Source of the DNA: Pseudomonadota bacterium
GTDB lineage: Bacteria > Bdellovibrionota > Bdellovibrionia > Bdellovibrionales > SG-bin7
Assembly (NCBI GenBank): GCA_034439715.1
Contig: JAWXAY010000027.1
Location: 1-64,000 of the forward strand
Length of the DNA stretch: 64,000 nt
Direction: 5' to 3'
Below, piece by piece: positions 4,902 through 35,563 of this stretch. The notes beneath the pieces were generated by a model that saw nothing but the letters and a program-made list of their open reading frames with translations, did no database searches and was not told the DNA's origin. Every line of letters begins with the position of its first letter. Position 1 is the stretch's first letter. A program made the position numbers and the translations under genes.

Positions 4902-4970
4902 ACCCACCCCCGAAAATTCAAGTTATTTTCACTTGCCGCCCGCAAAAAGTAAATAGTAAATAACCCTCAT

Positions 4971-16797: not shown

Positions 16798-16847
16798 AAA
16801 AAAAAGGCCACATCTCTGGGTGGGTGGGAGAGACTTGTGACTCTATT
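16798..16847 (-). ncRNA. Candidate small RNA or leader hairpin with CCCACCCACCC loop, copy 1
   Basis: GUCACA(AG)UCUCU-CCCACCCACCC-AGAGAUGUGGC-C-U8 downstream of box + TAGTAT; homologous to 35447-35497. Confidence 0.55.
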
Positions 16848-16853
16848 TTATTA

Positions 16854-16912
16854 ATACTACGTGGTTCAAATGGTGAATTAAATGAGTATTAATGAGCCAT
16901 TGAACAATGGCT
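16854..16912 (-). promoter_or_regulatory. Island box plus -10 hexamer, with an additional inverted half-site
   Basis: TGGCTCATTAATACTCA (16899-16883), then 23 bp, then TAGTAT; palindrome GAGCCATTG-AA-CAATGGCTC. Confidence 0.7.
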
Positions 16913-16939
16913 CGAATTGAAAATATTTTTTTAAAGGAA

Positions 16940-18505
16940 TTAAGCCCTTAACAAAAAGTTCAGCTCTGGCGCGGGTTGAACATCCGAATAGCTGTTATAA
17001 ACCGCAGCCGGGATTCCTAATGATTTGGCGACTGTTTTCCAAACGCTGGCACCAGAAACTCGCCCGCTGTTATCAGTAGAACCATTGGCCATAGTAACGC
17101 CATTAGCATCAGGCCTATGATAACTAAATGTGTAACTCGTACCATTATTCGCCGCTATGCGGATATCTCCGTAATAACCACCTCTTATTCGACCACCAGC
17201 GAGAACTACGGCATTTTTACCGCGATCACCGAACGATTCACATTCAATACCTCGGCCACCGTCGGTGGTATAAATTGCAATCAGTGTTCGATCGTAAACG
17301 CCTCGGGCTTTAAGTGTCTCGATAAGTCGAGCTAACGGAAGTGCAAACTGCTTAGACTGCGCTAGCATGGCTGCTTCTGGACGTGAACCGTGAACATCTC
17401 CGTAACAAAATTCCAAAGCCACGGTCCGCAAAGCTGCTGCCGAAACAAGTTTTGCTGCGTAAGCCGCTTGTTCCCAAATTGAGGCCACTGAACCACCAAA
17501 AGTAGTAAAACCCACATCAGGTACACCGGAACTCCAATACTGTCTTTCTAGAGCAGTCAGATTTAAATTTAGAGCAGTAGTAGGCCGCGCTAACTTAGAA
17601 TTAAAGTTTTGTATTTGGGTTAAGTGATCACTCGAAGCCAAGTCAGTATATTTAAGTCTATTTAAAAAACTCGCATCCACTCTGTTCAACAATCTTGTAA
17701 CTAAATCTTTTTGTTGAGCCAAAATGGAAGTGGCACTAGTCACATTGGCAAAGTTACTCAACAAAGTAGGCGTATCCGTAATTCTGTCAATTTGTGCGTC
17801 TACTAAATTAGCGGCGTGATGGTAAATGGCATGTTTACGGTCGCCGCGACCTAAACCCTTATAGGCAATTCCACGTCTTAAATTTCGATCGAGTTGCCTT
17901 TGATGAAAATTATGAAGAATGGCTGAGGTCGGCGTAGCACTGTAATGTCGCTCATTGCCGCCAAAGTCTCCCGCTTGAATAGCTGGTGAGAACTGACCGT
18001 CAATGTTCCACATTGACGTGCGTCCCGCACCTGCGTTGTAGTTTCGCCCTGGAGAACGTAAAGCGTTTGCCGCCTCATGGCCATGAATCGTTCCCATAGA
18101 TAGCTCACCCACTTCGATAACGGCAATTGAATCCAAATGAGGAATCAAAGAAAGTCCATCTGTACCAAGATAAAAATTATTGCCACCTCTTCGCAAAGTA
18201 TTAGGATCCTGTGACAATGCCACATTTCGGCCTGTGAAACCCCGACGAAGATTCGGATAAGTCGCGAGGCCCGGCGCCACAATGGCATTTAAAAAATCGA
18301 ATTGATCTCGTAAATTAATTTCTATAAAATTTGTAGGAATTGTACTTTCAAAACTTTGAGCGTAGGCCTCGCCCATAACTATATCCAAGCAACCAAAACG
18401 TAGCGCTGGGGGCACAAATGGTGAAGCCAAGACTAGTCCCAATATTTTTAAGAACTGTCGACGTTCTGTAATAGGCATTCTCTCAAAATCTAAAGGTTTT
18501 TTCAT
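16940..18505 (-). CDS. DUF1501-like Tat-exported protein (module D)
   Basis: ERRQFLK Tat motif, AYAQ cleavage site, GDVHG, TDGGR and LAGGRIRGG.YG. Start re-called to ATG 18505. Confidence 0.75.
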   Translation of the reverse strand: MKKPLDFERMPITERRQFLKILGLVLASPFVPPALRFGCLDIVMGEAYAQSFESTIPTNFIEINLRDQFDFLNAIVAPGLATYPNLRRGFTGRNVALSQDPNTLRRGGNNFYLGTDGLSLIPHLDSIAVIEVGELSMGTIHGHEAANALRSPGRNYNAGAGRTSMWNIDGQFSPAIQAGDFGGNERHYSATPTSAILHNFHQRQLDRNLRRGIAYKGLGRGDRKHAIYHHAANLVDAQIDRITDTPTLLSNFANVTSATSILAQQKDLVTRLLNRVDASFLNRLKYTDLASSDHLTQIQNFNSKLARPTTALNLNLTALERQYWSSGVPDVGFTTFGGSVASIWEQAAYAAKLVSAAALRTVALEFCYGDVHGSRPEAAMLAQSKQFALPLARLIETLKARGVYDRTLIAIYTTDGGRGIECESFGDRGKNAVVLAGGRIRGGYYGDIRIAANNGTSYTFSYHRPDANGVTMANGSTDNSGRVSGASVWKTVAKSLGIPAAVYNSYSDVQPAPELNFLLRA

Positions 18506-18506
18506 A

Positions 18507-19586
18507 TTATTGCCCCGCCATAAGTAAAGAACCAATAACCATCGGATGTCTTAAGCTCTCGAAAACAATCTGTTTAAAACTGGGGTCCTGATATTTTTGC
18601 TTTAGTTTGGCAGAAATATCTTTGACCACCCCACGATTAATAGTTTCATTGCCGTCTGTAAGTCGAATAAAGTACCGAACAGAGTTTCTAACGGAACATT
18701 CTGTAAAATTAGCATTATTCACCAAGGCTTGAGCAGCCTCTCTCAAATTATTTGAGGTCTGCCCAAACATTTGAGAAACTTCGGATCTCGCAAGGTCGGA
18801 AGTCACCATATGCGAAGTAAAAAGATCATTCACAGAAAGTCCGGGCTCAAGATTGGGATTTTGCAGGCCTGTGGCGGCAGCTTTATAAACTCCAAAAGCG
18901 TCAAATTTAACAAAAAATTGAGTGTGAGCACTGAATTGCCCATGGCACGCATAGCAAGCCGTACCATTGCCAAACTCTGCAGCTCCTATTGCTAAGTCAG
19001 CCGCAAACATAGGTATTAATGATTCTCTCGGCAGTCGCGGCTGTAAAGTGGTGGACATCGGATAAGACTGGCACGCAAACTGACGTAACGTATTACTAGC
19101 ACGAGAAAGATTAAATCGTCCGCTATACTGCTTTAGAAAAGCGCGAGTCGTTAACACGCCTGCCACAAATGGGGAGCCCGTATCACAACTTATTCTCTGC
19201 CTATTATTATCAACACAGTAATCCGCTGTTAAGATTTCAGAGTAAGGCCGATTCTGGCGAATTAAATAATCGAGAAGATTTGCCGGAAGTTCATAGTTAA
19301 TAGTGCCATCGTTTCCGCTAACACCGAGCTGGGTCTGAATTTGAATTCGGCTAGATTTAACAAAAAATTCAGAATCCACCCAAGACTGTAAAACTCTTTC
19401 TAAACCCACGTACCCCTCGCTCCTAAGGGTACTTCTCTCCGCAGCATTCAAGGGTCGACCAGTGAGCATCGAGCTCAGCCGCGCCATATAGTTTTCTATC
19501 TGCTGCGGAGTAAACGAACTGGTTGATTGCGCTTGCGCACTATTCAATCCTGTCAAAACAACTAAAATAAATATTAGATTTTTCAT
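18507..19586 (-). CDS. Secreted single-CxxCH protein, DUF1588/DUF1585-like core (module D)
   Basis: Sec signal AQA; AGVLTTRAFL; CYACH. Confidence 0.75.
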   Translation of the reverse strand: MKNLIFILVVLTGLNSAQAQSTSSFTPQQIENYMARLSSMLTGRPLNAAERSTLRSEGYVGLERVLQSWVDSEFFVKSSRIQIQTQLGVSGNDGTINYELPANLLDYLIRQNRPYSEILTADYCVDNNRQRISCDTGSPFVAGVLTTRAFLKQYSGRFNLSRASNTLRQFACQSYPMSTTLQPRLPRESLIPMFAADLAIGAAEFGNGTACYACHGQFSAHTQFFVKFDAFGVYKAAATGLQNPNLEPGLSVNDLFTSHMVTSDLARSEVSQMFGQTSNNLREAAQALVNNANFTECSVRNSVRYFIRLTDGNETINRGVVKDISAKLKQKYQDPSFKQIVFESLRHPMVIGSLLMAGQ

Positions 19587-20146
19587 TGTGCTACATACTC
19601 CAAAGAAGAAAGTGTTACATAACAGAGTACTTCGAGGCGAACGTCGTTTGATACGGCCAGTGCAGTTACATCATTTATATTACTTTGATCCTCAGCGTTC
19701 AAATCTCTTCCAAGAGCGGATTCTATAAATCCCCTAGCTGCAGCAGGAAAGGGGAATTTGGTCCGGAGTGCCAGCGATGAACAGTAAGGCTGAAGAGCTT
19801 GAGTCCATGAAGCCAATCGAGAGTCTGTCCAAGTTAAGTCTTGCGATACTCCTCTGGCAAAATCATAAGATCCCAATTCAATTTTTTTAGAATTAAGTTG
19901 AGCATAAAGTGCGACATCTGTGCTACCGATCAGAGAATTTAGTTTATTGATCCGAACATCAAACGGTAGAATTCGCACTGCACTCCTATCTATTTTAAAA
20001 AGACCAAGAGTTATTGACTCCGGAGGCACAAACAAGAATGATCCTGAAGAAGCGAGTTCTGACTTTTGGCTTTTAAAACCGCTGCAGTTACTATAAAAAA
20101 CGGCGACTACAAACAAAGATGCCAAATAAATTATTGATCTTTTCAT
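19583..20146 (-). CDS. Putative lipoprotein (module D)
   Basis: FYSNC signal; ALGRDL..E helix and C-terminal LC...LSSLEY. Start re-called to ATG 20146 (ATGA overlap). Confidence 0.8.
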   Translation of the reverse strand: MKRSIIYLASLFVVAVFYSNCSGFKSQKSELASSGSFLFVPPESITLGLFKIDRSAVRILPFDVRINKLNSLIGSTDVALYAQLNSKKIELGSYDFARGVSQDLTWTDSRLASWTQALQPYCSSLALRTKFPFPAAARGFIESALGRDLNAEDQSNINDVTALAVSNDVRLEVLCYVTLSSLEYVAQ

Positions 20147-21126
20147 GGAACCTGCCAATCTTGTGCATGACATAGGGTTAAAAATAGAGAGCGCCAGCCT
20201 TCTATCGTAGGATATTGTAGAGTGGTTGTTTGATTGACTAGGCTTTGCAATGCCGTGGTCACAGTAACCGGAGCAGTTCTGCCAACATAAAATAACCCGT
20301 AGGCATTAGAAATTTGTCCCGCTGTTGGTAACACGGTACTAGAGCCCGCACCAGCAAGTCCTCGAGCAAACTCTACCGCACCATCGTTAGATAATATTTT
20401 ATCGCACGTACGATAGACTAGTGCTGCGCGGGGTGACGTCATGCCTGGTATTATTGCGGCCTGACTTTCTGCAGAGCTGCACCCAAATGAGTAAGAATCA
20501 CAAGGTCCACCAAATTGTATCACATTATCTGCAATCGCACCTTTGGTTAATGGCGCTGCCACTGGTCCAAAAATTTCATTTAAAGTAGTGGCTACATAGC
20601 TTCGCGTTTCCAAGCGAATCACCCTTCTCACTCCCGTCGTGCCGCCCTTTGGGGGAGGCGGATTGGCGCCATTCTTTTTTTCATATGCCGCCCAGGTAAC
20701 CAAGGCCGCTGACATCTCTGAACCGTCGCTCGTACAAAACTGAGCATTGGCAATATCACTCTTACGGCAATGATTATTTTTTGATTGTTCTATAAAATAA
20801 GAATTTAATACATTTTCGAAATCGGCATATTTACGATTGTCAGATGTTTGTCCCGCCTTAGAAATCTCGTAGGACAAGTTGAGATCATTTTGCGCAAATA
20901 AAGGCTGTTGATTTGCACTGTGGCAACCTGCGCAGTTTTTTCTGGTGACGGCGTAAACAGAGGTGCGAAAAACTTCTTTGGCCAGTAAGATGTCAACTGA
21001 TGACTGGCTATTACTGCCAAATTCGTCACTTTTAAGTGAAGTAAATTTGCTGCAGTTTTGAAAACCCATCAATAGCGTCAAGCCCAGTGCTAGAAAAGCT
21101 ATTATAAGTTTAACGTTAAATTTCAT
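20143..21126 (-). CDS. c-type cytochrome-like lipoprotein (module C)
   Basis: FQNC signal; CAGCH; paralog of 24642..25589 with the shared C-terminus DWQVP. Confidence 0.82.
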   Translation of the reverse strand: MKFNVKLIIAFLALGLTLLMGFQNCSKFTSLKSDEFGSNSQSSVDILLAKEVFRTSVYAVTRKNCAGCHSANQQPLFAQNDLNLSYEISKAGQTSDNRKYADFENVLNSYFIEQSKNNHCRKSDIANAQFCTSDGSEMSAALVTWAAYEKKNGANPPPPKGGTTGVRRVIRLETRSYVATTLNEIFGPVAAPLTKGAIADNVIQFGGPCDSYSFGCSSAESQAAIIPGMTSPRAALVYRTCDKILSNDGAVEFARGLAGAGSSTVLPTAGQISNAYGLFYVGRTAPVTVTTALQSLVNQTTTLQYPTIEGWRSLFLTLCHAQDWQVP

Positions 21127-21151
21127 TTTTAGATTTCCCCAAATTCTACAG

Positions 21152-22924
21152 TTAGGATCTATTTTTTGCCAGCTCCACGTTATTCACAATGCCACTAGTG
21201 GCAGTTTCAAGAACCAAAGAACTATTATTAGGATTAATTTTTTCAACTCGTAAAAGATGCGACACGGTCGACGAAATGTGGCCTATGCCTAAGGTAGTAC
21301 TGGCACCATCTATTGTAACGGGTGCCGCCAATCCCCAACCGCCCCAGTTTCCAAAACCATTTCCGCCATTGTTAAGACAGTTGCCAACGACCATGGGTTT
21401 CTTAATGGCTCCCGAAATAAGTGTCGTATTAGAGTTTCTGGATTCATGACCTGTGCTACCGTCTGACCCCGGGTTTCTGCCAAAATCAGAGGAGATCTGA
21501 AAAACCGTTTCATCAAATAAGTTTTTAGACTTAAGCTGGCTAATCATTTCATAAAGACAAGCCGAGAGTGCGGTAAAAATAAATGAGTTTATAATAAGTC
21601 CCGTCCAAGCTCCTCCGCCGTGGGCATCGCCGTTCCAGTAGCCATTTCTTGAAACTATTTGTCCGCTATCAAAATCAACTGAATTTTGAACCAAAAGACT
21701 TTTTGTCTCACCTAAACTCATTCGTGCCGAACTCGAATAGCCATTGACGATTAAGAATTCAGCGACAGCAAAGCTCTCTGCAACCTCATCTATCATAGTG
21801 CTAGCTTGTATCATCGTCGCCAAATTTGCGTTCCTGACTTCCATTATATCAGGAATTCTAAGTTGAACTCGGAATCCATTATACCTGGCTTCGTTGTTAG
21901 TCTGGGGAGCAATATTTGCTGTAGATACCGGTTTATCAGTAATTCCTGGCATTGCTGTAGTCGCACACCTGGCAATGAGACCTCTGTATTTTGCTAAAAG
22001 CTGTTGGTAAACCGGTAGCAAATTTGTAATACCTTGCTTAATTAATGGCTCGGCAGAATTTCGAACCGAAAATAAAGCTTCTGAGCCCGGATACCTAGAC
22101 TTTGCAATAATACCTAACTGTGTGAGCGCGCCTTTGAGTGCAGAATCAATCGCATCACGTCGTGACATAAAAGTTGCAGAAAGCCCGTCGTTAACAACTC
22201 TATTCGGAAGAAAGGGATTGTAATCACCTGAGCGAGCAAAAGGTGCTAATAATTGATTGAGTGGATCTCCACCAGTACATGTAGCTATGCCGCCGCCCAT
22301 GCCTGAACGAAAGTTATTAGCGCCGCCAAACGAAACTGCAGGTAGTGATTTTGTTGAACGATCAGCCACCAAGCCATCTAAACTTGGTGCTGAGCCGGAA
22401 GGCCTAATTTGCATTGACGACGCCTCCGCGTGAAAATCAATAAGTCCGTCAAAGCTTCGCATCATTAACATATTGTCCAAAAGGCTTTCCATCGGAACCA
22501 CACCGCCATTTGAAGTGGGAATATTTGATCCCCACAAGTGTGGCATATTTAAAGTTACACCATTTCGGGTAATAGCTCTTGTGGCATATATCGGATTATC
22601 GTAAAAACCACCTCTGTCGGTAAATCTGGTAAATACATGGGCCGTCCTAGCATCGGGTTGTATGATGCTTGTATTGGATTCGTAAGGAACTAACGGCTGA
22701 TCCCAATACCAACGGGTCATTCCCCCGCCGAGATGTAAATAGACATAATTGCGCACTGGCAGACCCGAATTGACAGCTTGGGCATGTGCTTTATTAACAA
22801 GTCCATCGACTAAGCCATCCATTAATAGTTGCATGGGTCCGAGAGCGACTCCCACGCGGCCAATGGACTTCATGAAGTCTCGACGGCTCATTGCAGGCTG
22901 TTTTTTTTGTTGACGTTTTTTCAT
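21152..22924 (-). CDS. DUF1501-like Tat-exported protein (module C)
   Basis: SRRDFMK, AHAQ, L.GG...W, DAHGGG and SDFGRNP..GTGH motifs. Confidence 0.82.
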   Translation of the reverse strand: MKKRQQKKQPAMSRRDFMKSIGRVGVALGPMQLLMDGLVDGLVNKAHAQAVNSGLPVRNYVYLHLGGGMTRWYWDQPLVPYESNTSIIQPDARTAHVFTRFTDRGGFYDNPIYATRAITRNGVTLNMPHLWGSNIPTSNGGVVPMESLLDNMLMMRSFDGLIDFHAEASSMQIRPSGSAPSLDGLVADRSTKSLPAVSFGGANNFRSGMGGGIATCTGGDPLNQLLAPFARSGDYNPFLPNRVVNDGLSATFMSRRDAIDSALKGALTQLGIIAKSRYPGSEALFSVRNSAEPLIKQGITNLLPVYQQLLAKYRGLIARCATTAMPGITDKPVSTANIAPQTNNEARYNGFRVQLRIPDIMEVRNANLATMIQASTMIDEVAESFAVAEFLIVNGYSSSARMSLGETKSLLVQNSVDFDSGQIVSRNGYWNGDAHGGGAWTGLIINSFIFTALSACLYEMISQLKSKNLFDETVFQISSDFGRNPGSDGSTGHESRNSNTTLISGAIKKPMVVGNCLNNGGNGFGNWGGWGLAAPVTIDGASTTLGIGHISSTVSHLLRVEKINPNNSSLVLETATSGIVNNVELAKNRS

Positions 22925-24396
22925 TCTAACGACGACCTCCGGTAAGTGTCGGAATTCAGAATTTTCTGAATCAACTGCCTCAAACTTTGCGTCGACTTAA
23001 GTTCTAAACCTAACGAAATAACTATATCTCGATATTTGACTTCGTCAGCAGTTAGCGCCGGCTTAGTGGTATCACCAATGTCATTTAGATTGGCTTCAAT
23101 TCCTGTAAAGAATTTAAAGTACCGCGAAGCTGCGCAAACATACATTTCATTATTTACAGAAAAAGCATTACCCAAATCTTGGATACTAGAAAGATTCTGA
23201 TTTATTAATCGACCGTCGTAGCTGCGATACAACAAAACACCGCTTGTCGGTCTACTATGAAACCTGTTGTCGCTGGAAACTGGCCCCGCCTCAGCTGGGT
23301 CTGTCGTCGGCCACACCGTCAGGTGCATGTGTGCGTCGTCAGTTAACATTGGTACAGAATTATAAGATATATGGCGTGCAACATAAGCTGTTCGGTCCAT
23401 ACTAGCATGGCATTGCATACAATTCGAACTTTGTCGAAACGGGATCCCCGTTGCCTGCACAAAGGGTTCGGCATCAGCACGACGGATAAGCGGCAGATCT
23501 CGGCACATAAAACTGTTATATCCCGCGCGTGCCCAACGGCGTGGTACGCGAAGTCCCCCGTCCATTGGGTAGTAGTCCGACCTTCCTAAATTTAACATTA
23601 AAAAAGATTTGGTCCCTAGAACGCCACCACCTAAACTTTGATGGGGCATCATAGGTTGCCTAAGCTGAGCATAACCCTCAGGTGCCCCTTGGGCGCCAAT
23701 AACACTTAGATTAATTTTTGTAGGATTTAAAGTAATGGGACGTAAGCCGATCAGATCTCCGAATTGAACTAATTCTGACTGAATATTAACTCGCGCCGTA
23801 TTTGTATAAGAGGCTGCCTGCGCCAAAGAAGTGCGCATCCCGATTGTGGCATTCGCTAGTGGACCTGTATAAGGTGGAGGTGGCGGATTTTGTATGGGAC
23901 CACTCGTTCTTAGAGCCTCCATTGAGTTTCTTCCAAGTACTACCTCAGAGTAATTTACACCTTGAGTAAATAGAGTTCTTGAAATATGAAGCGCGCTTTC
24001 GCCCTGGTCGTAAAGAAATCGAGTGGCAGCGTTAAAACTAAGTCCGTGAGGAATGGCAGTCCCAAAATTATCTGTCGGAAACCAACTTCGATGGAAGTCA
24101 TTAAGTCTTTGTAAAACAAGTCGCCCCTGCGCCGTGTCCGAAACCAGACGGCCTTCTGAACCCGCGCCTGCTGATGAGGGCTGGAGTCTGGCACTATCGA
24201 GTACTTGCAAGCAGGCGTTTGCCGCAGTTAAGGTACCACTGTTTACACTTGCTCGTAGATTATGATTAAAGGGAAGTCGAGTTCCTGTTAGGTTAGCATA
24301 ACAACGGTTAAATAAGGCCAACTCACTTAAGTTTTCAATTTGCGCTGAGGCATTAAAACTAAAGAAATAAATAAGTGATAGTGCAGTAACTCTCAA
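22921..24396 (-). CDS. Secreted single-CxxCH protein, DUF1588/DUF1585-like (module C)
   Basis: Sec signal ASA; LFNRCYANLT; GGVLGT..FL; CMQCHASMD; paralog of 27356..28831. Confidence 0.82.
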   Translation of the reverse strand: MRVTALSLIYFFSFNASAQIENLSELALFNRCYANLTGTRLPFNHNLRASVNSGTLTAANACLQVLDSARLQPSSAGAGSEGRLVSDTAQGRLVLQRLNDFHRSWFPTDNFGTAIPHGLSFNAATRFLYDQGESALHISRTLFTQGVNYSEVVLGRNSMEALRTSGPIQNPPPPPYTGPLANATIGMRTSLAQAASYTNTARVNIQSELVQFGDLIGLRPITLNPTKINLSVIGAQGAPEGYAQLRQPMMPHQSLGGGVLGTKSFLMLNLGRSDYYPMDGGLRVPRRWARAGYNSFMCRDLPLIRRADAEPFVQATGIPFRQSSNCMQCHASMDRTAYVARHISYNSVPMLTDDAHMHLTVWPTTDPAEAGPVSSDNRFHSRPTSGVLLYRSYDGRLINQNLSSIQDLGNAFSVNNEMYVCAASRYFKFFTGIEANLNDIGDTTKPALTADEVKYRDIVISLGLELKSTQSLRQLIQKILNSDTYRRSSLE

Positions 24397-24412
24397 GCTT
24401 CCCCCTCCTAAA

Positions 24413-24458
24413 ATAGTATCGGCAATTTGCGCTAAAATCTATGAGTTCTTATGAGCCA
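24413..24458 (-). promoter_or_regulatory. Island box plus -10 hexamer, with overlapping FliA-like -10 (module C/D promoter)
   Basis: TGGCTCATAAGAACTCA (24458-24442), then 23 bp, then TACTAT; GCCGATAC at 24423-24416. Confidence 0.68.
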
Positions 24459-24641
24459 ACAGTGTCTCGCTCTGATACATGTTAGTTGCTGATTCTACTA
24501 GGGTATGTTGCAATTCCTATTCCCGTCACAATGGGTTTTACGCGGCAACTGCAGGGTGTTTTCTGACACCTGTATGTTAGTTTTACGTTTTCTGTTACTT
24601 AAAAAAAACAGATACACGTTGTTGAGTATCAGTTTTAATTT

Positions 24642-25589: not shown

Positions 25590-25600
25590 AATATCACTTC

Positions 25601-27346
25601 CTACTTATTAATCGCCAAGTCAACTAGGTTGGTAATTCCGCCAGTGGTTTCTTGTATCAAGGCACCATTGTTAGACATCGGATGTTCTACCCTTAAGAGT
25701 TCTGCAACAGTTGATGTCGCGTGACCAATGGTAAGTTCCTGTTCAATACCGTCAACTTTTACGGGCGCAGCGGCTCCCCAAGTACCTCTGTAATTGCCGC
25801 CGGCTGGACTATTCGCGCCTTCAAAAAGTGTATGCCCAAGCACCATTGGTTTAATGATCGCACCAGAAACCAAAGACGTCGCATGAGCCATCCAACCGTG
25901 ATCTGAACCTGAATTATCATTTCGTGGATCACGACTAAATTCACCACCAACTTGAATAACTGTTTCTTTAAATATATTCGCTGTTTTTAAAACTGAAACC
26001 ATTTCATAAAGACAGGCCGCAATCGCCTTAAAATGAAAACTATTAATAATCAAACTACAAAATGAGCCACCCGAATGTTCGTCATGTGCCCAGCCGTTAA
26101 CTTGGTTCCCGATTGCCCTTGCTCCCGTTACTCGTCCTGCGGCATCTTTGGTGGGTTCGAAGACATCCTGAAAACTAAGTCCCGAAATATAGCTTGCCGC
26201 TAAATTTATGCTTGAGCTGTAGCCATTAATTAATAAATATTCAGCGACAGCGAAACCTTCTGCCAAATTAGCTACGTTGGAGTTTGCTGTAATCATTTGT
26301 CCTAAGTTAGCAGCGGGTCCTAAAAAATTTTGATCTGCGTTGATCGTATGATTAATAACAAAACCATTCGGGCGAGGAAGGTTTCCGACGGCAACTGGGA
26401 CATTGGTAACGCCATCCATTCCGCCAGCACCCACCGCCCTAATTAGATTTGCATATTTATCTCTAATGCCTGTATAAGCTGTACTTAAATCTCCAATACC
26501 ACGACGAAGAAGAGTTTCGGCATCATTTCTCATAGCGTAAAGGCTCTCAGTGCCGGGCATATTTGATTTTGCTTGCGCCGCTAAATCCCTGAGGGCCGCA
26601 TTAACAGAAATATCAAGTGCATTTTGGCGGCTGAGAACTCCGGCGTCTAGCGCGTCGCTAGAGCGATCAAATGGCGACAAAAGTCTTCTCAGAGGATCAT
26701 TGGCAAAATCATTTAGTTTTCCTTGAGCAACACCCTTTCTCGACTTATAGGCGTCGCTAAAACCTCCTGGTAGATTTACTGCCGGTACTGGAGCTTGTGA
26801 TCGATCGGCAACGGCGCCATGTAGACTCGGCGAAGAGTTCAAAGGTCTTAAGGTTTTAAAGTTATTATTAGTGTGGCCGTCTGAAGGTAGTTTTACTCCA
26901 CGAATCATCAACATATTTTCGAGAAGATTTGCCATTGGTGCTTGGCCGCCACCGACAGTGGGAATATTCTGGTTCCATAGACTTGGCATATTCAAAGTAA
27001 CACCTGCGCGAGTAATAGCATTGGTTACGTAGCCTGATTGGGTGGAACTAGTAAAGCGAGTCGCTACATGAGGATTAGCAATAATGGCCTCAGTCCTATA
27101 CGGCATAAGCGGCATATCCCAGACCCACCGAGGCGGACCTCCAGGTAAATTAACATAAATAAAATTACGCGGTTTCACTATGGCGCCTGTAACCTGAGCT
27201 TGGGCACTCATCGTCATGCCGTCGATTAGGCTTGAAATCAACATTTGCAGCGGGCCCGGAAAAGTCACAGCAGCTGAGGCTCCTAACATGCCTAGGAACT
27301 GCCGACGTGGGAGATGACATTTTGGTTTATTTTTCTCTCTGCCCAT
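25601..27346 (-). CDS. DUF1501-like Tat-exported protein (module B)
   Basis: PRRQFLG, AQAQ, LPGGPP, HDEHSGG and GEFSRDP...GSDH motifs. Confidence 0.87.
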   Translation of the reverse strand: MGREKNKPKCHLPRRQFLGMLGASAAVTFPGPLQMLISSLIDGMTMSAQAQVTGAIVKPRNFIYVNLPGGPPRWVWDMPLMPYRTEAIIANPHVATRFTSSTQSGYVTNAITRAGVTLNMPSLWNQNIPTVGGGQAPMANLLENMLMIRGVKLPSDGHTNNNFKTLRPLNSSPSLHGAVADRSQAPVPAVNLPGGFSDAYKSRKGVAQGKLNDFANDPLRRLLSPFDRSSDALDAGVLSRQNALDISVNAALRDLAAQAKSNMPGTESLYAMRNDAETLLRRGIGDLSTAYTGIRDKYANLIRAVGAGGMDGVTNVPVAVGNLPRPNGFVINHTINADQNFLGPAANLGQMITANSNVANLAEGFAVAEYLLINGYSSSINLAASYISGLSFQDVFEPTKDAAGRVTGARAIGNQVNGWAHDEHSGGSFCSLIINSFHFKAIAACLYEMVSVLKTANIFKETVIQVGGEFSRDPRNDNSGSDHGWMAHATSLVSGAIIKPMVLGHTLFEGANSPAGGNYRGTWGAAAPVKVDGIEQELTIGHATSTVAELLRVEHPMSNNGALIQETTGGITNLVDLAINK

Positions 27347-27355
27347 GTTTCTCCT

Positions 27356-28831
27356 CTATAACCGCTGCGCTGAACTTCGATATAAGTCACTACTAAAAAT
27401 TGATTGAATGAGAGCTTTTAAATTTTGACTATTTTTTAAATCCAAGCCTAATTTTATGACGATGTCTCGGTAAGATTTTTCACTACTGCTCAATGCTGGC
27501 AAACTCGTGTCTCCGGGATCCTGCAAATTGACTTTGATCCCGGTAAAAAACTGAAAATATTTAGCAGCCGTACATACATATAGATCTTCGGTTTCCGAAA
27601 GCGCTTCTCCTAGAGTTGCTAGGCTGCTAACTTGTCGATCGATGAGATTTCCGTTATAACTCCGATAATATAATTTCCCGTTAGTGGGGCGCTGAAAATA
27701 ACTAGAATCGGCGTCTACAAAGCCATTCTCTGCAGGTTGAGTTGCTGCCCACTTTCTAGTATGGACTGTGCCGCCAAATAAAACATAGGAGTTTGTAGCG
27801 TAACTAATATTGCGAGCAACACTTGCCATACCATCCATAGAGGAGTGACAACTCATACAACTACCGGCTTTACGAAAAGGCGGAGTCAATGCCGTAACAA
27901 CTGTTTGAATAAGTGGTGTTGCGTCGGTGATTCTAACGGCCGGAAGCTCACGACATAGTACATCGCTGTAAACAGCCTTGGCCCAGCGTCGATTCATAAC
28001 CAAACCGCCGTCGGAGGCACCCGTATCGGGACGTCCCAAATTTAATAACAAATAGGAAGGGGTTCCAATTATTCCCCCACCATGGGCTTCATTGGGACGT
28101 AACGGCCCGGGACTACCAAAATATCTATTGGCAACCTCGGTACCATCTAAAGAATTTGTAACCAAATTTATTTTTTCTGTGTTCAAAGATAAACGACGAA
28201 CTCCCAAAAGCTCGCCAGTCTGCACTAAAGGTGGATTCCAATTAACTCTCGTTGCCCCCGCATTTGGAACACTTGTAGACCACTGCTGCAGCTTATCGCC
28301 ATTCAATGCGTTTCTATCGTAAGGCGACGGTCCAATAGAGCGCAGGGCTTCCATGGCACTATTACCTGTAACAATCTCAGAAAACCGGAGACCATTAGTC
28401 AGCAAAACGCGAGTGACATGTAATCCCGCCTCTTGCTCATCATGAATGTAGGGCTGGTAATTAAAATCCTCTAAAAAGGGAATGGCCTTCATAATATTAT
28501 CATTGGGAAACCACGAGCGATGAAAATCGTTCATATTTAATAACACTTGTTTTGCTTCGTCGTTACTGTTGACGAGGCTACCCTCGTTAGGCTGGGTCGC
28601 AATTAGTTGCACCCCATTGATAACTCTCATACAGGCATCTACAGCTTTAAGCGTACCAGCTTTTACCTGGGCACGCAGCGGATGAGAAAGTGGCAAACTT
28701 TTTTGGGTGAGATGGGCATAGCATCGACTAAAAAGAGCTAGCTCTGAAAGAGGCTCGCGTGAACGATCCTGGCCGAGGGCAGAGTTCGACAATAAAAATA
28801 ATAGAATCCCCATGAAAACATGACTGGTCAT
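27356..28831 (-). CDS. Secreted single-CxxCH protein, DUF1588/DUF1585-like (module B)
   Basis: Sec signal; LFSRCYAHLT; GGIIGT.SYL; RRWA...LCR.LP; CMSCHSSMD. Confidence 0.82.
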   Translation of the reverse strand: MTSHVFMGILLFLLSNSALGQDRSREPLSELALFSRCYAHLTQKSLPLSHPLRAQVKAGTLKAVDACMRVINGVQLIATQPNEGSLVNSNDEAKQVLLNMNDFHRSWFPNDNIMKAIPFLEDFNYQPYIHDEQEAGLHVTRVLLTNGLRFSEIVTGNSAMEALRSIGPSPYDRNALNGDKLQQWSTSVPNAGATRVNWNPPLVQTGELLGVRRLSLNTEKINLVTNSLDGTEVANRYFGSPGPLRPNEAHGGGIIGTPSYLLLNLGRPDTGASDGGLVMNRRWAKAVYSDVLCRELPAVRITDATPLIQTVVTALTPPFRKAGSCMSCHSSMDGMASVARNISYATNSYVLFGGTVHTRKWAATQPAENGFVDADSSYFQRPTNGKLYYRSYNGNLIDRQVSSLATLGEALSETEDLYVCTAAKYFQFFTGIKVNLQDPGDTSLPALSSSEKSYRDIVIKLGLDLKNSQNLKALIQSIFSSDLYRSSAQRL

Positions 28832-28951
28832 CTGTATCCCCGACTCATCTATTAAGCTTAACTCTTGGTCTCTAAAATGTACACGAGCAAAAAAAAACTA
28901 AAAAATAACTGTCTCAACTTGAGAAAACCTGTAAAAAAAATAAACAGTTAT

Positions 28952-30406: not shown

Positions 30407-30407
30407 A

Positions 30408-31979
30408 CTACCGCCTTAAAAATCGATCAGAAGTTACTAATGCTAAAATAAGATCTTTTAAAAATCCCGTTTTATTAAATTCCGTCTGTAGGCCGGCCAA
30501 CATTTCACTGTCTTTAGTTTCAGGCTCACTGCCCATGCCAAAGTGAAAGACTTGGCGCACAAAGCAGCTTTTAAATTGACTGGAGCGAATGAGAATCTCA
30601 GATAACTCAGCTGGACCCGAAAATGCATTTGAGCCAAATACTTGGCCCTTGCCCTCTATAAAACACGTACTTTTTAAGCTGCCATCACTATTATAATCAA
30701 ACTCTCTATATTTACCAGTACGGTCAAAGCGCTCGAGTCCAAAGCCAATGGGGTCCATTTGTAGATGGCAGGCAAAGCAAGTGGACCCTTGCCGACGATG
30801 TGAATCGTAGCGATTGTATTTACAGTCAGGCTGTCCAACAACCAATGGTGGAGGACTGTCAACATTTGTATTTGGGGGCGCTGGCGGTACGATTTTACAA
30901 AGCAGTCGCTCAGTGACAAACTTCCCGCGCAGTGTGGGACTCGTGTCACCAAATTTAGGAACTGCCGACAAAAACGCCGCCGTGCTAAGTATGCCTTGTC
31001 GATTTGGAGGTAAACCTACGAGTGAAGGCGTACCTGTTAGACCTTGAATTTCATAAATATTGCCGAGCGTACTACTAATGGTTGTTTGGCGAGAGGTAAA
31101 CAAATCCTGCCAAGGCTTTTGCTCCGTAACCAAAATGCGTCTTACCAGAGTGTCAGCCTCTTGTTTCATTGCTGCTGACAATATGTCTCCCGCCGGAAGT
31201 TTAGCATAACCTAACCAAAAGCCATGGAGCTTTTGAATTTGTGCGGGCGCTCTGGGCGAGGCCAGCATTGTACTTGCAACTTGCCGAACTTGGCTGGGAG
31301 TAGAAAGCTGCTGGCTTTCTGCTAATTTCAAAAGAGCATCATCAGGACCGCTGCCCCAGATAAAAAATGACAAACGGCTGGCGATATCAAAGTCAGTGAG
31401 GGTGGTTTTCCCTTCGATTCTATATAAAAATTTTGGATGCTGGAGAAAAACGCGAATGAGCATTTCGACACCCGCATCAAAACTTCCTAACTGTGTCACC
31501 TGCTTTAAGCCATATGCTTGCAGCCCTGTAATTTCGTCTTGAGTAAGTGGTCTGCGAAAAAATAGTCGGCCTAATTTTTTTACTATTGATACAATACACG
31601 TCTGATCTGCGCCTGCGAGGCCTGAGCAACCCAGAACACTTTGTTTTTTGGCGGGGTCGCTCATAAATCTTTGGGCTGCGTCGGCAGCAAAGTTGTCCAG
31701 ACCCTGAATAAGCGGGGCTGAGGGATTTTGCTGGCGCACATCATTATCAAAGGGATTAGTTTCTTCAGCTGGCAAGAATGTCTCAGAACGAGATAAATTG
31801 TCGTCTAAAATAAGTGTTAGGGACTTGTTAATTTCATCGTTTGTGAGGCGTCGAAGAGTGGGTTGGCCACTTAGAGAACTAAGTCCCGATTCGCTATTTT
31901 TAGTCGACTTAAACCCATCGCAATTTCCATAGAATACAATAAGAAAAGCTGATAAAAACAACCATCCTATAAATCTCAA
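30408..31979 (-). CDS. DUF1587/1595/1592/1588/1585 multidomain heme-motif lipoprotein (module A)
   Basis: FYGNC signal; LRRLT; ASRLSFFIWGSGPD; TSPTLRG..V..RLLC; CFACHLQMDPIGFGLE. Confidence 0.9.
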   Translation of the reverse strand: MRFIGWLFLSAFLIVFYGNCDGFKSTKNSESGLSSLSGQPTLRRLTNDEINKSLTLILDDNLSRSETFLPAEETNPFDNDVRQQNPSAPLIQGLDNFAADAAQRFMSDPAKKQSVLGCSGLAGADQTCIVSIVKKLGRLFFRRPLTQDEITGLQAYGLKQVTQLGSFDAGVEMLIRVFLQHPKFLYRIEGKTTLTDFDIASRLSFFIWGSGPDDALLKLAESQQLSTPSQVRQVASTMLASPRAPAQIQKLHGFWLGYAKLPAGDILSAAMKQEADTLVRRILVTEQKPWQDLFTSRQTTISSTLGNIYEIQGLTGTPSLVGLPPNRQGILSTAAFLSAVPKFGDTSPTLRGKFVTERLLCKIVPPAPPNTNVDSPPPLVVGQPDCKYNRYDSHRRQGSTCFACHLQMDPIGFGLERFDRTGKYREFDYNSDGSLKSTCFIEGKGQVFGSNAFSGPAELSEILIRSSQFKSCFVRQVFHFGMGSEPETKDSEMLAGLQTEFNKTGFLKDLILALVTSDRFLRR

Positions 31980-31996
31980 GTATCCCCCTTAGCACT

Positions 31997-32042
31997 AGTT
32001 TATCGGAAATTTCCTAAAAATTATCTACGTATTATTGAGCCG
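31997..32042 (-). promoter_or_regulatory. Degenerate island box plus -10 hexamer, with overlapping FliA-like -10 (module A promoter)
   Basis: CGGCTCAATAATACGTA (13/17 match; 32042-32026), then 23 bp, then TAAACT; TCCGATAA at 32007-32000. Confidence 0.55.
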
Positions 32043-33231
32043 GCAGCCAAAGGCTGTAAACCCAAATAGGATCTCCAATAGAGTCTAGCGTTTCAATCAT
32101 TGCGAGCTGACCAGTTGCTTGATCGATCTTAAACGAAGTTAATTTTTTGGTCCGCATACCTGCCACATAAATATATCGACCCGAGGGATCAATCTCGAAC
32201 TCTCGCGGCACACCTTCAACTTTTTGCTGTCCCCTACTCGTTAAAAACCCACTTATGGGATCAATAGCAAAAATAGCTAGACTATTATCACCTCGATTTG
32301 AGGCATACAAATATTTTGCATCCGGCGTAATATGAATGTCAGCACAAAAATTGGAATTGCCGTTAACTCCTGCCGGGAGAGTTGAAAGTGAATTTTGGAA
32401 ACTCAGCTGACCATTGGTCGGATCCTCAGAATAAACGGTCACGCTGTCTCCCAATTCGTCAACTACGTAAAGTAAATTCTTGGTGGGATGATGTACGACA
32501 TGTCGGGGACCAGAACCAATTGGCGCCTGAATTTTTGCCGGAGAATTAGGGGTCAATAAACCAGTCAATGAATTAAGTAAAAACTGCGAGATCGTATTTG
32601 CCACAGTGTTGGTGACATACACAAACTTACTATTTTGAGTGCTTATGGCAGCGTGCGAATTAGTGTCTGTATTTTGTGTGTCTGTTGGTGTTTCGCTGAG
32701 GCTGCCATCGGGCCGAATTGGCAGAACAACAACTTTGCTGTCGGAGTAAGAAGGTATCAACAGATTTTTTTGAAGGGAATCGACATGAATATAAACAGGA
32801 TTGATGCCGATTGCCACCTCTTGCGAAAACGTCAGGCTTCCGTTGGCCTGATCAATGAGAAATGCCGCGACCGACCGTCTGGCACTCAAACCCGCATAGA
32901 GATATTTTCGATTGGGATGAATGCCGAGCGGTACAATTTCACCCGCGATGGAGGCTGCACTTGTCTGTGTAAGTTTCCCACTTTGGGGGTCAATAACAAA
33001 AGTAACTAGGTTGTCGACATCTTTATCGATAAGGGCCATAAACAAAAAAAACTTACCCTGACCTTTAGGCGGCAGCCCTGCGGGTATTGGATCGGGAGGC
33101 GCTGAACTTTCCAAAGGCAATTCAAAGCTGGCTTGATCTACCGTTGCCGTAAATTTATTGCAGTTGGTATAACTTAACACGAGCAATGTGAAAATCAGAA
33201 TGAAATTAAACGGGCGACTTACTGCTGCCAT
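32032..33231 (-). CDS. Exported lactonase (Pgl/cycloisomerase-2 family 7-bladed propeller)
   Basis: GSGPRH, ADIHITPD..YLYASNRG and PREF motifs; N-terminal SYTNC signal. Confidence 0.88.
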   Translation of the reverse strand: MAAVSRPFNFILIFTLLVLSYTNCNKFTATVDQASFELPLESSAPPDPIPAGLPPKGQGKFFLFMALIDKDVDNLVTFVIDPQSGKLTQTSAASIAGEIVPLGIHPNRKYLYAGLSARRSVAAFLIDQANGSLTFSQEVAIGINPVYIHVDSLQKNLLIPSYSDSKVVVLPIRPDGSLSETPTDTQNTDTNSHAAISTQNSKFVYVTNTVANTISQFLLNSLTGLLTPNSPAKIQAPIGSGPRHVVHHPTKNLLYVVDELGDSVTVYSEDPTNGQLSFQNSLSTLPAGVNGNSNFCADIHITPDAKYLYASNRGDNSLAIFAIDPISGFLTSRGQQKVEGVPREFEIDPSGRYIYVAGMRTKKLTSFKIDQATGQLAMIETLDSIGDPIWVYSLWLPAQ

Positions 33232-35330
33232 GCACTCACCATGCTAAATGGTGGCTGTGGCTTTGAAGTTGTCGTGCCATCGCCGAGTTGTCCCGCGCTA
33301 TTATTTCCCCAGCAATATGCTTGCCCCTGAACTACGGCACAGTTGTGATGCGTTTCATCGACGCTGCCACCTGCAAAGTAAGATACGTCCCCCGGGGGCA
33401 GTCCAACTACTTTTAGTGGTGTTGGCTTGGCGGTATTAAAATTAGCGCCGGGTGCGCCTTGACGATTGTCGATATCATTTCTTCCCCAGCAATACAGGTC
33501 ACCACCTGAGATGGCACAATACCCGCCTGCGATCGCACCCAACATGGTGACACCAGAAAGCCCGATAACTTCAAGAGCTGTATTGGACGAATTCGCAATG
33601 TTGGCAGGACCCTGCCCCAGGGCTCCCCAATTATATCCCCAGCACTTTACCGTAGCATTCGGCATTAATGTGCACATACCGGATGAAATTGCTGAAAGCT
33701 GTAGAACGTTTGAACCTGCAGGAAATGAAGTGGTTGGAATAGGCCGAGGGTTACAGCGAAGGGCTCTCGTGTTCACGGTAACAGGTCCGCAGTCCGAGTA
33801 GAAGCCGTATGAAACATTGGGGTTGGATACCGTAGGTAAAACCATTCCTTCGGTAACATATGGAAGACACACCTTATAACTAGCAGCGGGTGGATTAGCT
33901 TCTAACAGACGGGAACCTTGATCGCAGACGTTGAAATTGCCAAATCGAGAATCATTTAATCCCCAACACTTAACTCCGCCGTCCTTGACGCCACAAGTGT
34001 AGCCCAACCCTGTGGCTATTGAGGTCACCCCTACCGCCATGTCCAAAACAGGTCGGGCATCTGGGTAATCAAGTTCACCAACGTCATGTAGTAATCCTGG
34101 GGCCTCCGCAAAACCAAGTTGTCCATACCTATTGGCTCCCCAACAGAAAGCGGCACCGCCAGCAACAGCGCAGGAGTGGTTCACGCCCGCATAAATTTTG
34201 CTGACGTTACTAAGTAAATTGCCAGCTGTATCTCTCACTAAAACCGGTGTTTCAACATCGGCACCGCCATTATTACTGCCCGCTTGAAAATTTGAATTCC
34301 AACCCCAACACTTAACATTTCCGTTTTGTATGGCACAGACATGTTCCTTGCCGACAGATAGTGAAGTCACGCCCGAATTTAATCCGGGAACTCTGAGTGG
34401 CACCGAGCTTGAAACCACAGATGTAGGTTGGCCCAACTGCCGATTTTGATTACTTCCAAAACACTGCACGCCGCCTCTAACAATTGCGCACGTAAAATTT
34501 ATCCCCACGCCTACGGCAGTCACAAAAGGAGTGGGCGGTAGAACGGGTTCTACGCTCATGCGCCGACAGGTAGTTGCGACGGCATAATCTGTATTATTAA
34601 TTGAGGTGACAAGGGTGCCGTTAAACACGATATTGTCGGCAGAATTATCGTCAACTCTAAAGTCAAATTTATACTCTGTAGAATAAAATCTGGTTTGGCT
34701 TCCTAAAGTAGACTTAATTACAGCAAAATCAGAAGTCCTTTGTGCGGTGACGGCTCCATTGACGAATGTGCCTAAATAAATCCTGCCCTTTTCTGTCCTT
34801 TGACTTGAGTTTAATCGAATGACAGCGTCAATTCCCACATTATTGTCCTTAAATTGACAAAAAGCCTCAGTGGCGTTTTCGATCGGGGCATTTTCGATCG
34901 GGGCATTAACATCTTCCACCTTCTCGAATACAGAATTTCGATAAACTAAAAAATCTTCGTCAAATGAAGAAATTTGCACTCCTGAAGTGGCCAGTGGCGA
35001 GGTAAATGTTGTAACGGTACAGTTGTCTTTAGTAATCGCCAAGTCGGTACTGTTGACGGTCATTACCGCTTGGGCCGATTTTACGTTTGAGCAAAGATAG
35101 TCAGGATATGTTCTAATATAATCACCCAGCTTAGGTTTACCATCAAAACCATCTCCGCCACCTTGTGCGGCCGTAACCTCAATCGATTTTTCACCAACTG
35201 AACTGAACTTCACCGATTCTGAATTTGAACAGCTTTGGTAATTCATCGAAGATAGGAATAAAAAAAGAAAGGTCAATCTTCCAAACAGTCGAAATCTTTT
35301 TTTTGAGTGGCCTTCGCTGTTCAAAATCAA
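33219..35330 (-). CDS. RCC1-repeat surface protein
   Basis: Repeated H.CA....V.CWG.N..GQLG; NYQSC signal; GGGDGFDGK. Confidence 0.88.
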   Translation of the reverse strand: MILNSEGHSKKRFRLFGRLTFLFLFLSSMNYQSCSNSESVKFSSVGEKSIEVTAAQGGGDGFDGKPKLGDYIRTYPDYLCSNVKSAQAVMTVNSTDLAITKDNCTVTTFTSPLATSGVQISSFDEDFLVYRNSVFEKVEDVNAPIENAPIENATEAFCQFKDNNVGIDAVIRLNSSQRTEKGRIYLGTFVNGAVTAQRTSDFAVIKSTLGSQTRFYSTEYKFDFRVDDNSADNIVFNGTLVTSINNTDYAVATTCRRMSVEPVLPPTPFVTAVGVGINFTCAIVRGGVQCFGSNQNRQLGQPTSVVSSSVPLRVPGLNSGVTSLSVGKEHVCAIQNGNVKCWGWNSNFQAGSNNGGADVETPVLVRDTAGNLLSNVSKIYAGVNHSCAVAGGAAFCWGANRYGQLGFAEAPGLLHDVGELDYPDARPVLDMAVGVTSIATGLGYTCGVKDGGVKCWGLNDSRFGNFNVCDQGSRLLEANPPAASYKVCLPYVTEGMVLPTVSNPNVSYGFYSDCGPVTVNTRALRCNPRPIPTTSFPAGSNVLQLSAISSGMCTLMPNATVKCWGYNWGALGQGPANIANSSNTALEVIGLSGVTMLGAIAGGYCAISGGDLYCWGRNDIDNRQGAPGANFNTAKPTPLKVVGLPPGDVSYFAGGSVDETHHNCAVVQGQAYCWGNNSAGQLGDGTTTSKPQPPFSMVSAWQQ
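34876..34905. repeat. Perfect 15-bp tandem duplication inside the RCC1 gene (NAPIE x2)
   Basis: TTTTCGATCGGGGCA repeated twice, in frame. Confidence 0.9.
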
Positions 35331-35373
35331 CCCCCGCGAGGTACATACTTTAGTCTAGATACTTACTTTAGTC

Positions 35374-35401
35374 CTATCGGACAGAACCAGTATAAATTTG
35401 A
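35374..35401 (-). promoter_or_regulatory. FliA-like promoter for RCC1-lactonase
   Basis: TCAA-N16-TCCGATAG. Confidence 0.5.
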
Positions 35402-35446
35402 GGCGTATTTTATTTATTAATACCCTCTCATTTTGAGCCATTCAGG

Positions 35447-35497
35447 AAAAAAAAGCCGCAACTCTTGGGTGGGTGGGGAGAGAGTTGCGGCCTGTAT
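35447..35497 (-). ncRNA. Candidate small RNA or leader hairpin with CCCCACCCACCC loop, copy 2
   Basis: Perfect 11-bp stem GCCGCAACUCU/AGAGUUGCGGC followed by U8, downstream of box + TAATAT. Confidence 0.6.
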
Positions 35498-35503: not shown

Positions 35504-35563
35504 ATATTACCGCGCTCATTTCGATAAATACATTAGTATTAATGAGCCAATAAATTTAGCTCA
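35504..35563 (-). promoter_or_regulatory. Island box plus -10 hexamer, with inverted half-site
   Basis: TGGCTCATTAATACTAA (35549-35533), then 23 bp, then TAATAT; plus strand TGAGCCA-N7-TAGCTCA. Confidence 0.7.

Follow-up and report, generated by a model that had tools for sequence, protein, structure and literature searches.

The 64,000-nucleotide (nt) stretch analyzed here, positions 1 to 64,000 of contig JAWXAY010000027.1 in the Bdellovibrionales assembly GCA_034439715.1 (the window), carries two minus-strand hairpins that share a C-rich loop, CCCACCCACCC, and end in a run of eight U residues (U8). To judge by sequence, these twins are real, probably expressed, lineage-specific sibling small RNAs (sRNAs), each with a credible dedicated promoter of a type shared with the surrounding gene island. 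We put the probability that they are sibling sRNAs with a narrow set of G-rich targets at about 0.5. The contig, called C27 here, belongs to a 3.26-Mb genome (42% GC, 95.7% complete; G000), which occurs in DNA runs from microbial-mat samples; other G numbers denote relatives and C numbers denote contigs. This genome is the sole representative of its genus in the genome collection compared, and the nearest comparison genomes belong to other genera.

Copy 1 (16798..16847) is a predicted RNA of ~50 nt with a short A-rich leader, a bulged stem, the CCCACCCACCC loop at 16828-16818, and U8 at 16805-16798. Copy 2 (35447..35497), a predicted RNA of ~51 nt, has a 13-bp stem, a CUCCCCACCCACCCA loop at 35480-35466, and U8 at 35454-35447. 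A first-pass annotation, made by a model from the letters of the window, had reported both hairpins with U8 tails and an invariant loop; the hairpins are present at these positions and CCCACCCACCC is common to both, although the loop of copy 2 is 15 nt long rather than 11. The window holds two exact matches to CCCACCCACCC, and three when one mismatch is allowed (0.40 expected; three were reached in 1/100 shuffles). The exact 11-mer occurs three times in the whole genome, the third time within coding sequence on C86. Copy 1 folds at -10.7 kcal/mol (z -2.4; 6/200 shuffles equally good) and copy 2 at -20.4 kcal/mol (z -7.0; 0/200). Within ~300 nt of context the loop is at least 98% unpaired, and forcing open the 3′ arm costs 7.6 and 17.7 kcal/mol, respectively, with no competing fold. 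Among 1,203 sites in the genome with a hairpin followed by U6, 348 have loops of at least 8 nt, and by C content the twins rank first and second. Contigs from other DNA runs (X6 and X8) cover both loci with identical letters, so the twins are not an assembly artifact.

Neither a generic terminator scan (loops of up to 8 nt) nor a generic sigma70 scan that requires a -35 hexamer flagged the twins. An Rfam 15 scan of the window, a search that the first-pass annotation had proposed, returned only a tRNA, and the twins matched no family even at E values up to 5. A plus-strand RNA with a G-rich loop was rejected, as copy 1 folds no better than shuffles in that orientation (z 0.4) and the U-tract is absent; a G-quadruplex was rejected on the count of just three G-tracts in the sequence.

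The hairpins are parts of two homologous cassettes of ~125 bp, 18.6 kb apart, and the described order of box, -10 element, hairpin, and U8 is borne out by the segment identities. The two copies agree at 15/15 positions of the box, 12/13 of the -10 block, 12/12 of the loop, and 8/8 of U8, against 33/73 (45%) of the neutral parts (flank, spacer, and linker); at a 45% background, the chance of a 12/12 loop is 0.45^12, or ~7e-5. The stems, said to diverge yet stay paired, do so in the predicted folds of both copies from which the pairs were read. In the outer 6-bp helix one pair is changed on both sides (A-U to G-C), one on a single side (U-G to C-G), with every pair left intact, whereas the inner helix has undergone a register shift within a CU repeat; the covariation evidence thus amounts to one true double change, from two sequences only. 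The alignment shows a duplicated ~125-bp cassette in which selection has kept box, -10 block, spacing, stem pairing, loop, and U8. By the same measure the loop is under selection, though not as a general anti-Shine-Dalgarno (anti-SD) element.

The selective conservation of the loop bears on a simpler account, in which the hairpins act only as intrinsic terminators for the two genes upstream of them, were duplicated together with a promoter, and carry the loop incidentally. Both hairpins do follow a same-strand stop codon and carry a stem with U8: hairpin 1 begins 95 nt after the stop of a minus-strand DUF1501-like gene (16940..18505), the last of its operon, and hairpin 2 begins 87 nt after that of the minus-strand gene 35580..37100. 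Of 81 gene-end terminators, 14 are at least 80 nt from the stop, and in relatives some C-rich hairpins stand right after a stop codon with no visible promoter (e.g., at locus L129). However, termination alone leaves unexplained both the 12/12 loop over a 45% background and a promoter aimed into a terminator 10 nt away, the short terminator loops of this genome are A/U-rich (49 C in 319 nt), and the median distance of the 81 terminators from the stop is 34 nt. We consider the terminator-only account quite unlikely; as sRNAs, the twins may additionally end read-through from the upstream genes.

The promoter assignment starts from a shared box, GGCTCATTAATACT, found on the minus strand at 16885..16898 for copy 1 (about -51 to -38) and at 35535..35548 for copy 2. 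In each case a putative -10 hexamer lies 25 nt past the box (TAGTAT at 16854..16859 and TAATAT at 35504..35509), and near the copy 1 box there is an extra minus-strand GAGCC half-site at 16913-16909. The same module recurs at three minus-strand sites unrelated to the twins, ~17 to 30 nt ahead of operon start codons: with TATCCT at 15270..15314, ahead of a DUF1592/DUF1552 gene pair and with no hairpin; with TACTAT at 24413..24457, ahead of the operon starting at 24396 and overlapping a sigma28-like GCCGATA; and with TAAACT at 31997..32041, ahead of the DUF1592/DUF1552 pair starting at 31979 and overlapping a sigma28-like TCCGATA. The box pattern GGCTCA-N4-WACT has six matches in the genome, five of them within the island. 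At 5/5 island sites a spacer of exactly 25 nt separates the 14-nt box from a TANNNT, which is lacking at the one site outside the island; for the three non-twin sites the chance of this spacing is ~2e-5 (background 0.028 per site). A looser scan for the box promoter returned nine sites genome-wide, including the five island sites. Transcription of the twins would start 7 nt past the hexamer, at about 16847 and 35497, which leaves a leader of 4 to 6 nt before the stem.

The gene at 35580..37100 encodes a 506-amino-acid putative TPR and winged-helix regulator, the likely binder of the box. Clusters of look-alike proteins in the Atlas are mostly from Bdellovibrionota, and some carry TPR_19, HTH_DeoR, or Trans_reg_C; in the protein itself Pfam recovers only a subthreshold TPR_12 (E 0.13). 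A strict promoter pattern, itself derived from the island sites, was scanned over 301 genomes and found four island sites and one other, G003:C29:25062, 3.6 kb from the closest homologue (49%) of the regulator. G003 has a second, looser box site at 26649, and there a homologue of the N-terminal part of the island's RCC1 gene adjoins the regulator homologue. We infer with strong confidence that the box, located at about -45 as is usual for class II activators, is where this regulator binds to turn on a sigma70-type promoter. The box was also considered as a sigma54 site and rejected, since the spacing is off and the -12 element is absent. Regulator-dependent synthesis of the ~50-nt RNAs is, on this footing, likely. 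A promoter rule is thereby proposed for one member of a large, uncharacterized regulator family of the Bdellovibrionota, with up to 12 matches per genome; in the literature covered, which leaves out most subscription journals, no description of twin-type RNAs or of this regulon was found. A separate observation concerns palindromic GTCTCA-N3-TGAGAC boxes, of which 30/58 genome matches are intergenic, compared with an intergenic share of 12.7%. Examples lie at 15910, 28911-28925, and 35439 in the window and beside regulator homologues at loci L017 and L031, and these boxes are probably operators of the TPR/winged-helix family.

At the three other island sites the box promoter drives protein genes, as would be expected if the hairpins were promoter-proximal attenuators or leaky terminators, the alternative that the first-pass annotation itself had offered for a PA14 and an RCC1 gene. 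The box promoter would then serve the downstream gene and the hairpin would set read-through, perhaps relieved by a loop-binding factor. Downstream of copy 1, a lipoprotein-like gene (15919..16758, minus strand) starts 40 nt past U8, has no box promoter of its own, and stands behind the weaker hairpin. Against attenuation, no antiterminator fold was found and the 4- to 6-nt leader has no room for a leader peptide or an aptamer. Downstream of copy 2, moreover, the RCC1 gene has a separate minus-strand promoter module past U8 (35375..35439), with a palindromic CTCA-N3-TGAG box (35439) and a sigma28-like site (35400), and the RCC1 homologue in G003 (36% over 238 amino acids) has a GCCGATAA site upstream and no hairpin. 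Attenuation is therefore unlikely for the RCC1 gene, given its own promoter, and possible for 15919-16758; as an explanation of both twins we regard it as improbable. The RCC1 repeats of 33219-35330 were confirmed, whereas the PA14 label of 15919-16758 found no support (no Pfam match at E 0.5 and no PDB match).

Complements of the loop were counted in translation start regions. Gene starts came from a simple caller (2,926 genes) that gives a bonus to Shine-Dalgarno (SD) sequences and misplaces some island starts, so that start-region counts are approximate, and duplex energies were calculated without mRNA accessibility. The 16S rRNA tail of the genome, GAUCACCUCCUUU, is of the usual type, which rules out an altered tail. 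SD sequences are of the normal AGGAG type and of a G-run type, with GGGGG in 129/2,900 start regions versus 9 upstream. Among the 55 arrangements of nine C and two A residues, the real loop comes last (rank 55/55) by number of 6-nt complements in start regions (55, versus 44 upstream and 39 in coding sequence), partly because its evenly spaced A residues break the C-run. Complements of 8 nt number two in start regions versus three and three in control windows, and a perfect 11-nt complement on C86 was set aside because it lies inside coding sequence. The longer loop of copy 2 (CUCCCC) behaves differently, with 138 6-nt matches in start regions versus 70 and 71, a twofold excess.

These counts leave little room for the broad anti-SD RNAs of the first-pass annotation, which were to form a repressive arm acting on the island's own G-rich-SD genes and on fumC. 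The copy 2 excess speaks for such RNAs, as does the frequency of GGGG near the start in island genes (6/20, versus 306/2,880 others; p 0.015). The proposed fumC site, GGGTGGGT (4902..4909, minus strand), does exist, and fumC ranks 5th and 7th by duplex energy among ~2,900 start regions; however, the match abuts the ATG at 4901, is at chance level, and its G-run is not kept in 5/5 relatives. Neither AGGAGG nor GGGGG is a full match to the loop's conserved part, and GGGTGG occurs in just 12/2,900 start regions (versus 6 upstream). Pairing with island genes is only slightly better than with other genes (p 0.06 and 0.035) and is equaled by the loop of the unrelated sigma54 RNA described below (p 0.035). 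General anti-SD action, with a loop that is the worst of 55 permutations at start regions and 8-nt matches at the level of chance, is accordingly a very unlikely function, and a repressive arm on the island is not borne out.

GGGTGG does precede the gene at 39788, as reported, and a box-driven gene of G003 has GGGTGGG at the SD position, with duplexes of -18.6 and -20.8 kcal/mol with the twins; these two sites are suggestive only, since G003 has no twin RNA. Separately, GGGG-type ribosome-binding sites (RBSs) are enriched in two groups of genes, those for F/Y-x-x-C lipoproteins (14/41, versus 298/2,859; p 5e-5) and those that have a sigma54-like site (16/59; p 3e-4), and such genes are possible targets of C-run RNAs. 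A G-run SD as a mark of sigma28 genes was not significant (12/79 versus 300/2,821; p 0.2). Hfq was not found in the genome, which is 95.7% complete. A C-rich stretch, CTCCTCCTCCCCC, that follows a regulator homologue at locus L012 (G002:C22) stands shortly ahead of the GGGGG SD of its own gene and could mask it in cis.

The sRNA reading would thus run as follows. The regulator binds the box and activates the promoter, as it would at three island operons; RNA polymerase starts 4 to 6 nt ahead of the stem and stops at U8, giving an RNA that is barely more than a terminator hairpin. With moderate confidence, we take the loop to be the working part, pairing in trans and free of Hfq with G-rich stretches near translation starts, the candidate motifs being GGGUGG(G) and, for copy 2, GGGGAG. 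Pairing would lower the translation of a few mRNAs whenever the secreted-protein island is on. The evenly spaced A residues would make a narrow seed that spares the common GGGGG and AGGAGG RBSs and does not mimic the 16S tail. Two features of C-rich-loop trans-acting sRNAs are present in the twins: an unpaired, conserved C-rich loop on a stable stem, and, judged from sequence alone, an own promoter with an intrinsic terminator. From the original proposal of sibling sRNAs in an island regulon, what survives is the pair of discrete, regulon-linked transcripts, predicted from the island promoter and with sibling precedents elsewhere; the anti-SD function, the fumC target, and the repressive arm do not.

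The precedents come from the wider order. Directly behind the twins in the C-content ranking of the genome is a hairpin at C60:9381, part of a minus-strand sigma54 C-rich RNA of ~55 to 60 nt (G000:C60:9376-9436; locus L042:2377-2437), termed the core RNA here. Across genomes, the core RNA consists of a sigma54 promoter, a 5′ C-run (lost in the G000 copy), a GCGRCCWGG/CCWGGYCGC stem, a C-rich loop that is often CCCCCUCCUUACCCU and close to the 16S tail, and a U-tract, and it lies mostly beside an Amidase_3 gene and rph in an amidase-rph operon. In 25 sequences of its helix, 98.4% of cells are paired and three pairs have changes on both sides. A regular expression found it at 10/30 amidase loci and missed the G000 copy, whereas model R1 found it at E < 0.003 in 107/151 genomes (113 at E up to 0.5), counts that include the 25 training sequences and nearly always represent one copy per genome. 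A pattern scan of the genome collection found 68 loci, of which 40 combine the sigma54 site with the C-run. Record titles name Bdellovibrio, Bdellovibrionales, or kin for 39 of the 40, cultured B. bacteriovorus strains included, and for none of the remaining 28. The core RNA matches no Rfam family; a hit to Esr41 at a single core locus (E 0.55) falls well short of the gathering score.

A broader model, R3, recovered further C-rich terminator hairpins, and among 22 inspected from its top noncore matches, 9 have a strict sigma54 site; beyond the order it gave 10 weak matches (E 2e-4 to 5e-3) in a phylum sample of 151 genomes. Sibling pairs of C-rich hairpins occur in G026, G112, G090, G130, and G001, and one more such hairpin lies in G000 at C67:23682. 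Near-identical siblings are found at G026:C17:14288/16792, G112:C26:62246/62778, and G130:C1:1195213/1694715. The hairpin at C67 (23682-23727) belongs to a second sigma54-type RNA (G000:C67:~23645-23727, plus strand; locus L175) that has three C-runs, ends in a terminator with a CCCCCC loop, and precedes a gene cluster that includes genes for succinate-dehydrogenase-like proteins (so labeled from the look of their translations); its relatives are in G001 (two copies), G090 (two), and G036. In genus g4, a conserved element of ~140 nt, GGGACTAA...GTCAGCCAGCTACC...GGTAACC...AGGAGGA..ATGGACA followed by a C9-loop terminator, occurs at G068:C2:859513, G026:C50:25223, G092:C167:11206, G004:C18:24269, and G060:C90:17674, and may be a structured RNA or contain a very short open reading frame.

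The C-runs of these RNAs also bear on the nature of the twins' partner. Given that ~50-nt RNAs are made, the (CCCA)n loop might instead be a decoy or ligand for a poly(C)- or CCCA-reading RNA-binding protein. CsrB and CrcZ act as RNA decoys for their own proteins. The twin loop is a perfectly periodic triple CCC; any other arrangement of its residues would pair better with start regions, and it stays the same in both copies even as the stems diverge. In the sigma54 RNAs of the order, the unpaired C-runs number two to four, are separate from one another, and vary in sequence. A single loop per RNA would nevertheless make a poor sponge, no candidate protein emerged, although no search was directed at one, and the nearness of CCCCCUCCUUACCCU, found in many core RNAs, to GAUCACCUCCUUU points to pairing in the core family. 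We regard protein binding as unlikely and retain pairing with G-rich targets as the preferred function of the twins.

Several results weigh against that preference. Complements of at least 7 nt to the 11-nt loop number 13 in start regions and 13 and 12 in controls, with no excess. The regulator and its presumed box are tied together only by their proximity in two genomes, and the sigma factor is uncertain, given that a sigma28-like motif overlaps two of the five -10 elements. The twins do not score with R1, standing at E 1.7 (rank 1) and 3.0 (rank 5) among 22 matches in the window. No twin homologue was found in 150 other genomes with the twin model R2 (best E 0.04), a mostly sequence-based search given that the structure string of R2 was out of register, and a pattern scan of the genome collection gave none. 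A metagenome scan with the regulator returned the window's own contig and one 42% fragment, with no further twin. In G003 the regulator homologue and the promoters occur without a twin hairpin, so the regulon does not always include the twin RNA.

Other searches for relatives of the twins gave a similar picture. R2 produced five weak matches (E 0.04 to 0.99), and one of them, the C-rich hairpin at L129, differs in its stem; the exact loop with U5 matched once in 60 relatives, not in a hairpin; a viral scan gave one match without stem or U-tract; and blastn against phages and plasmids gave nothing meaningful. The hairpin is absent from the DUF1501 homologue loci of 13 other genomes, two at ~70% identity, and from the sequence after regulator homologues. 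A similar loop at G003:C17:72613 was not counted, having a -2.3 kcal/mol stem and no box. Covariance-model and pattern searches thus found no homologue of the loop in relatives, an outcome that the first-pass annotation had listed as formally counting against its proposal. What is missing from the relatives examined, none of the same genus, is the whole cassette and not the loop alone, and on these sequences the twins are a lineage-specific pair, known from one uncultured genome. As for ties with the core RNA, no sigma54 -24/-12 promoter lies within 200 nt upstream of either twin, the five R1 matches in G000 do not include them, R3 did not recover copy 1, and its match to copy 2 is circular, that copy being in its training set.

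The twins nonetheless look like members of a broader group of C-rich small RNAs in these predators that has apparently gone undescribed. A bolder and doubtful extension is that the Bdellovibrionales possess a control layer of minimal C-rich-loop terminator-hairpin RNAs: a near-universal sigma54 member would mimic the 16S tail or read G-run RBSs, and islands would gain members behind the promoter of a local TPR/winged-helix regulator, their loop (here CCCACCCACCC) having been retuned either to GGGUGG as a private code or to a protein that reads C. On this view the twins would be an island-specific recoding, and the sigma54 member a candidate posttranscriptional switch of the predatory life cycle, testable in cultured B. 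bacteriovorus. Even on the narrower reading, they would represent regulatory RNAs of very small size under the control of a regulator encoded nearby. Their reach is limited to one uncultured genome, and the core RNA is the more testable lead, since it is carried by named strains of B. bacteriovorus, a species in which genes are routinely deleted and RNA-seq is standard.

The island that holds the twins (12176-40563, minus strand) consists mostly of secreted or lipoprotein-like genes and contains DUF1552/DUF1592 pairs (two in the window), DUF1501-like genes, a lactonase, the RCC1-repeat gene, and numerous orphans. Within it, a two-gene unit encoding a 491-amino-acid protein and a DUF1501-like protein is duplicated ~4.4 kb apart (21152-24396 and 25601-28831). 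Elsewhere in the window, 52154-59320 is a small integrated element with an integrase gene (58093-59148) adjoining a tRNA gene (59248-59320) and with DUF3987, DUF5681, and PD-(D/E)XK genes, and at 5426-7394 two convergent dihydrouridine synthase genes overlap at their 3′ ends.

Comparison with known systems, drawn from parts of the cited reports, places the twins among C-rich-loop RNAs of several phyla. The closest match in organism group is the core RNA, which is also alike in size, in its terminator hairpin with an open C-rich loop and U-tract, and in having siblings; it differs in its sigma54 promoter, 5′ C-run, and conserved GCGRCCWGG/CCWGGYCGC stem, none of which the twins have, and by analogy it offers a precedent that does not imply common descent. 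Small-RNA control in predatory bacteria is almost unstudied, to judge from the covered parts of two reports, with a handful of sRNAs reported and none with a tested mechanism (PMC3627812, PMC3818213). The attack-phase sRNAs of B. bacteriovorus (98 to 655 nt; PMC3627812) and its hit-locus sRNA (261 nt; PMC3818213) are, like the twins, intergenic and noncoding and come from the same order, and in the parts of those reports used here, which allow comparison by description only, no ~50-nt C-rich hairpin is described. Pxr of Myxococcus, a sigma54-driven, Hfq-less sRNA of a predatory bacterium, parallels the core RNA rather than the twins; it has three stem-loops, and the covered text mentions no C-rich loop (PMC5684412).

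Functional parallels are found farther afield. In Xanthomonas, the C-rich loops of sX13 repress mRNAs with G-rich motifs independently of Hfq, and sX13 resembles the twins in its stable stems with apical C-rich loops and in acting on G-rich motifs near translation starts; it is, however, 115 nt long with three stem-loops and 4C/5C motifs, whereas each twin is a single ~50-nt hairpin with CCCACCCACCC and no target signal (PMC3771888, in part). The alphaproteobacterial Cuckoo RNAs, including RSs0680 (CcsR), share with the twins a conserved C-rich loop, variable stems, and paralogous copies, but are built, in the sections consulted, of two to four adjacent hairpins with the anti-SD look-alike CCUCCUCCC (PMC4615179). 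Each twin is a single hairpin, with 18.6 kb between the two; they lack CCUCCUCCC, and their hairpin doubles as a terminator. For RsaE and RNAIII of Staphylococcus aureus, an unpaired UCCC motif is proposed to bind RBSs, and the copy 2 loop displays a similar UCCCC; as far as the sources were covered, those are longer, multidomain RNAs of Firmicutes, whereas the twins have no Rfam match (PMC9266662, PMC4615179). Although they fail the family features of sX13, the Cuckoo RNAs, and RsaE, the twins would, by analogy, work most like these RNAs.

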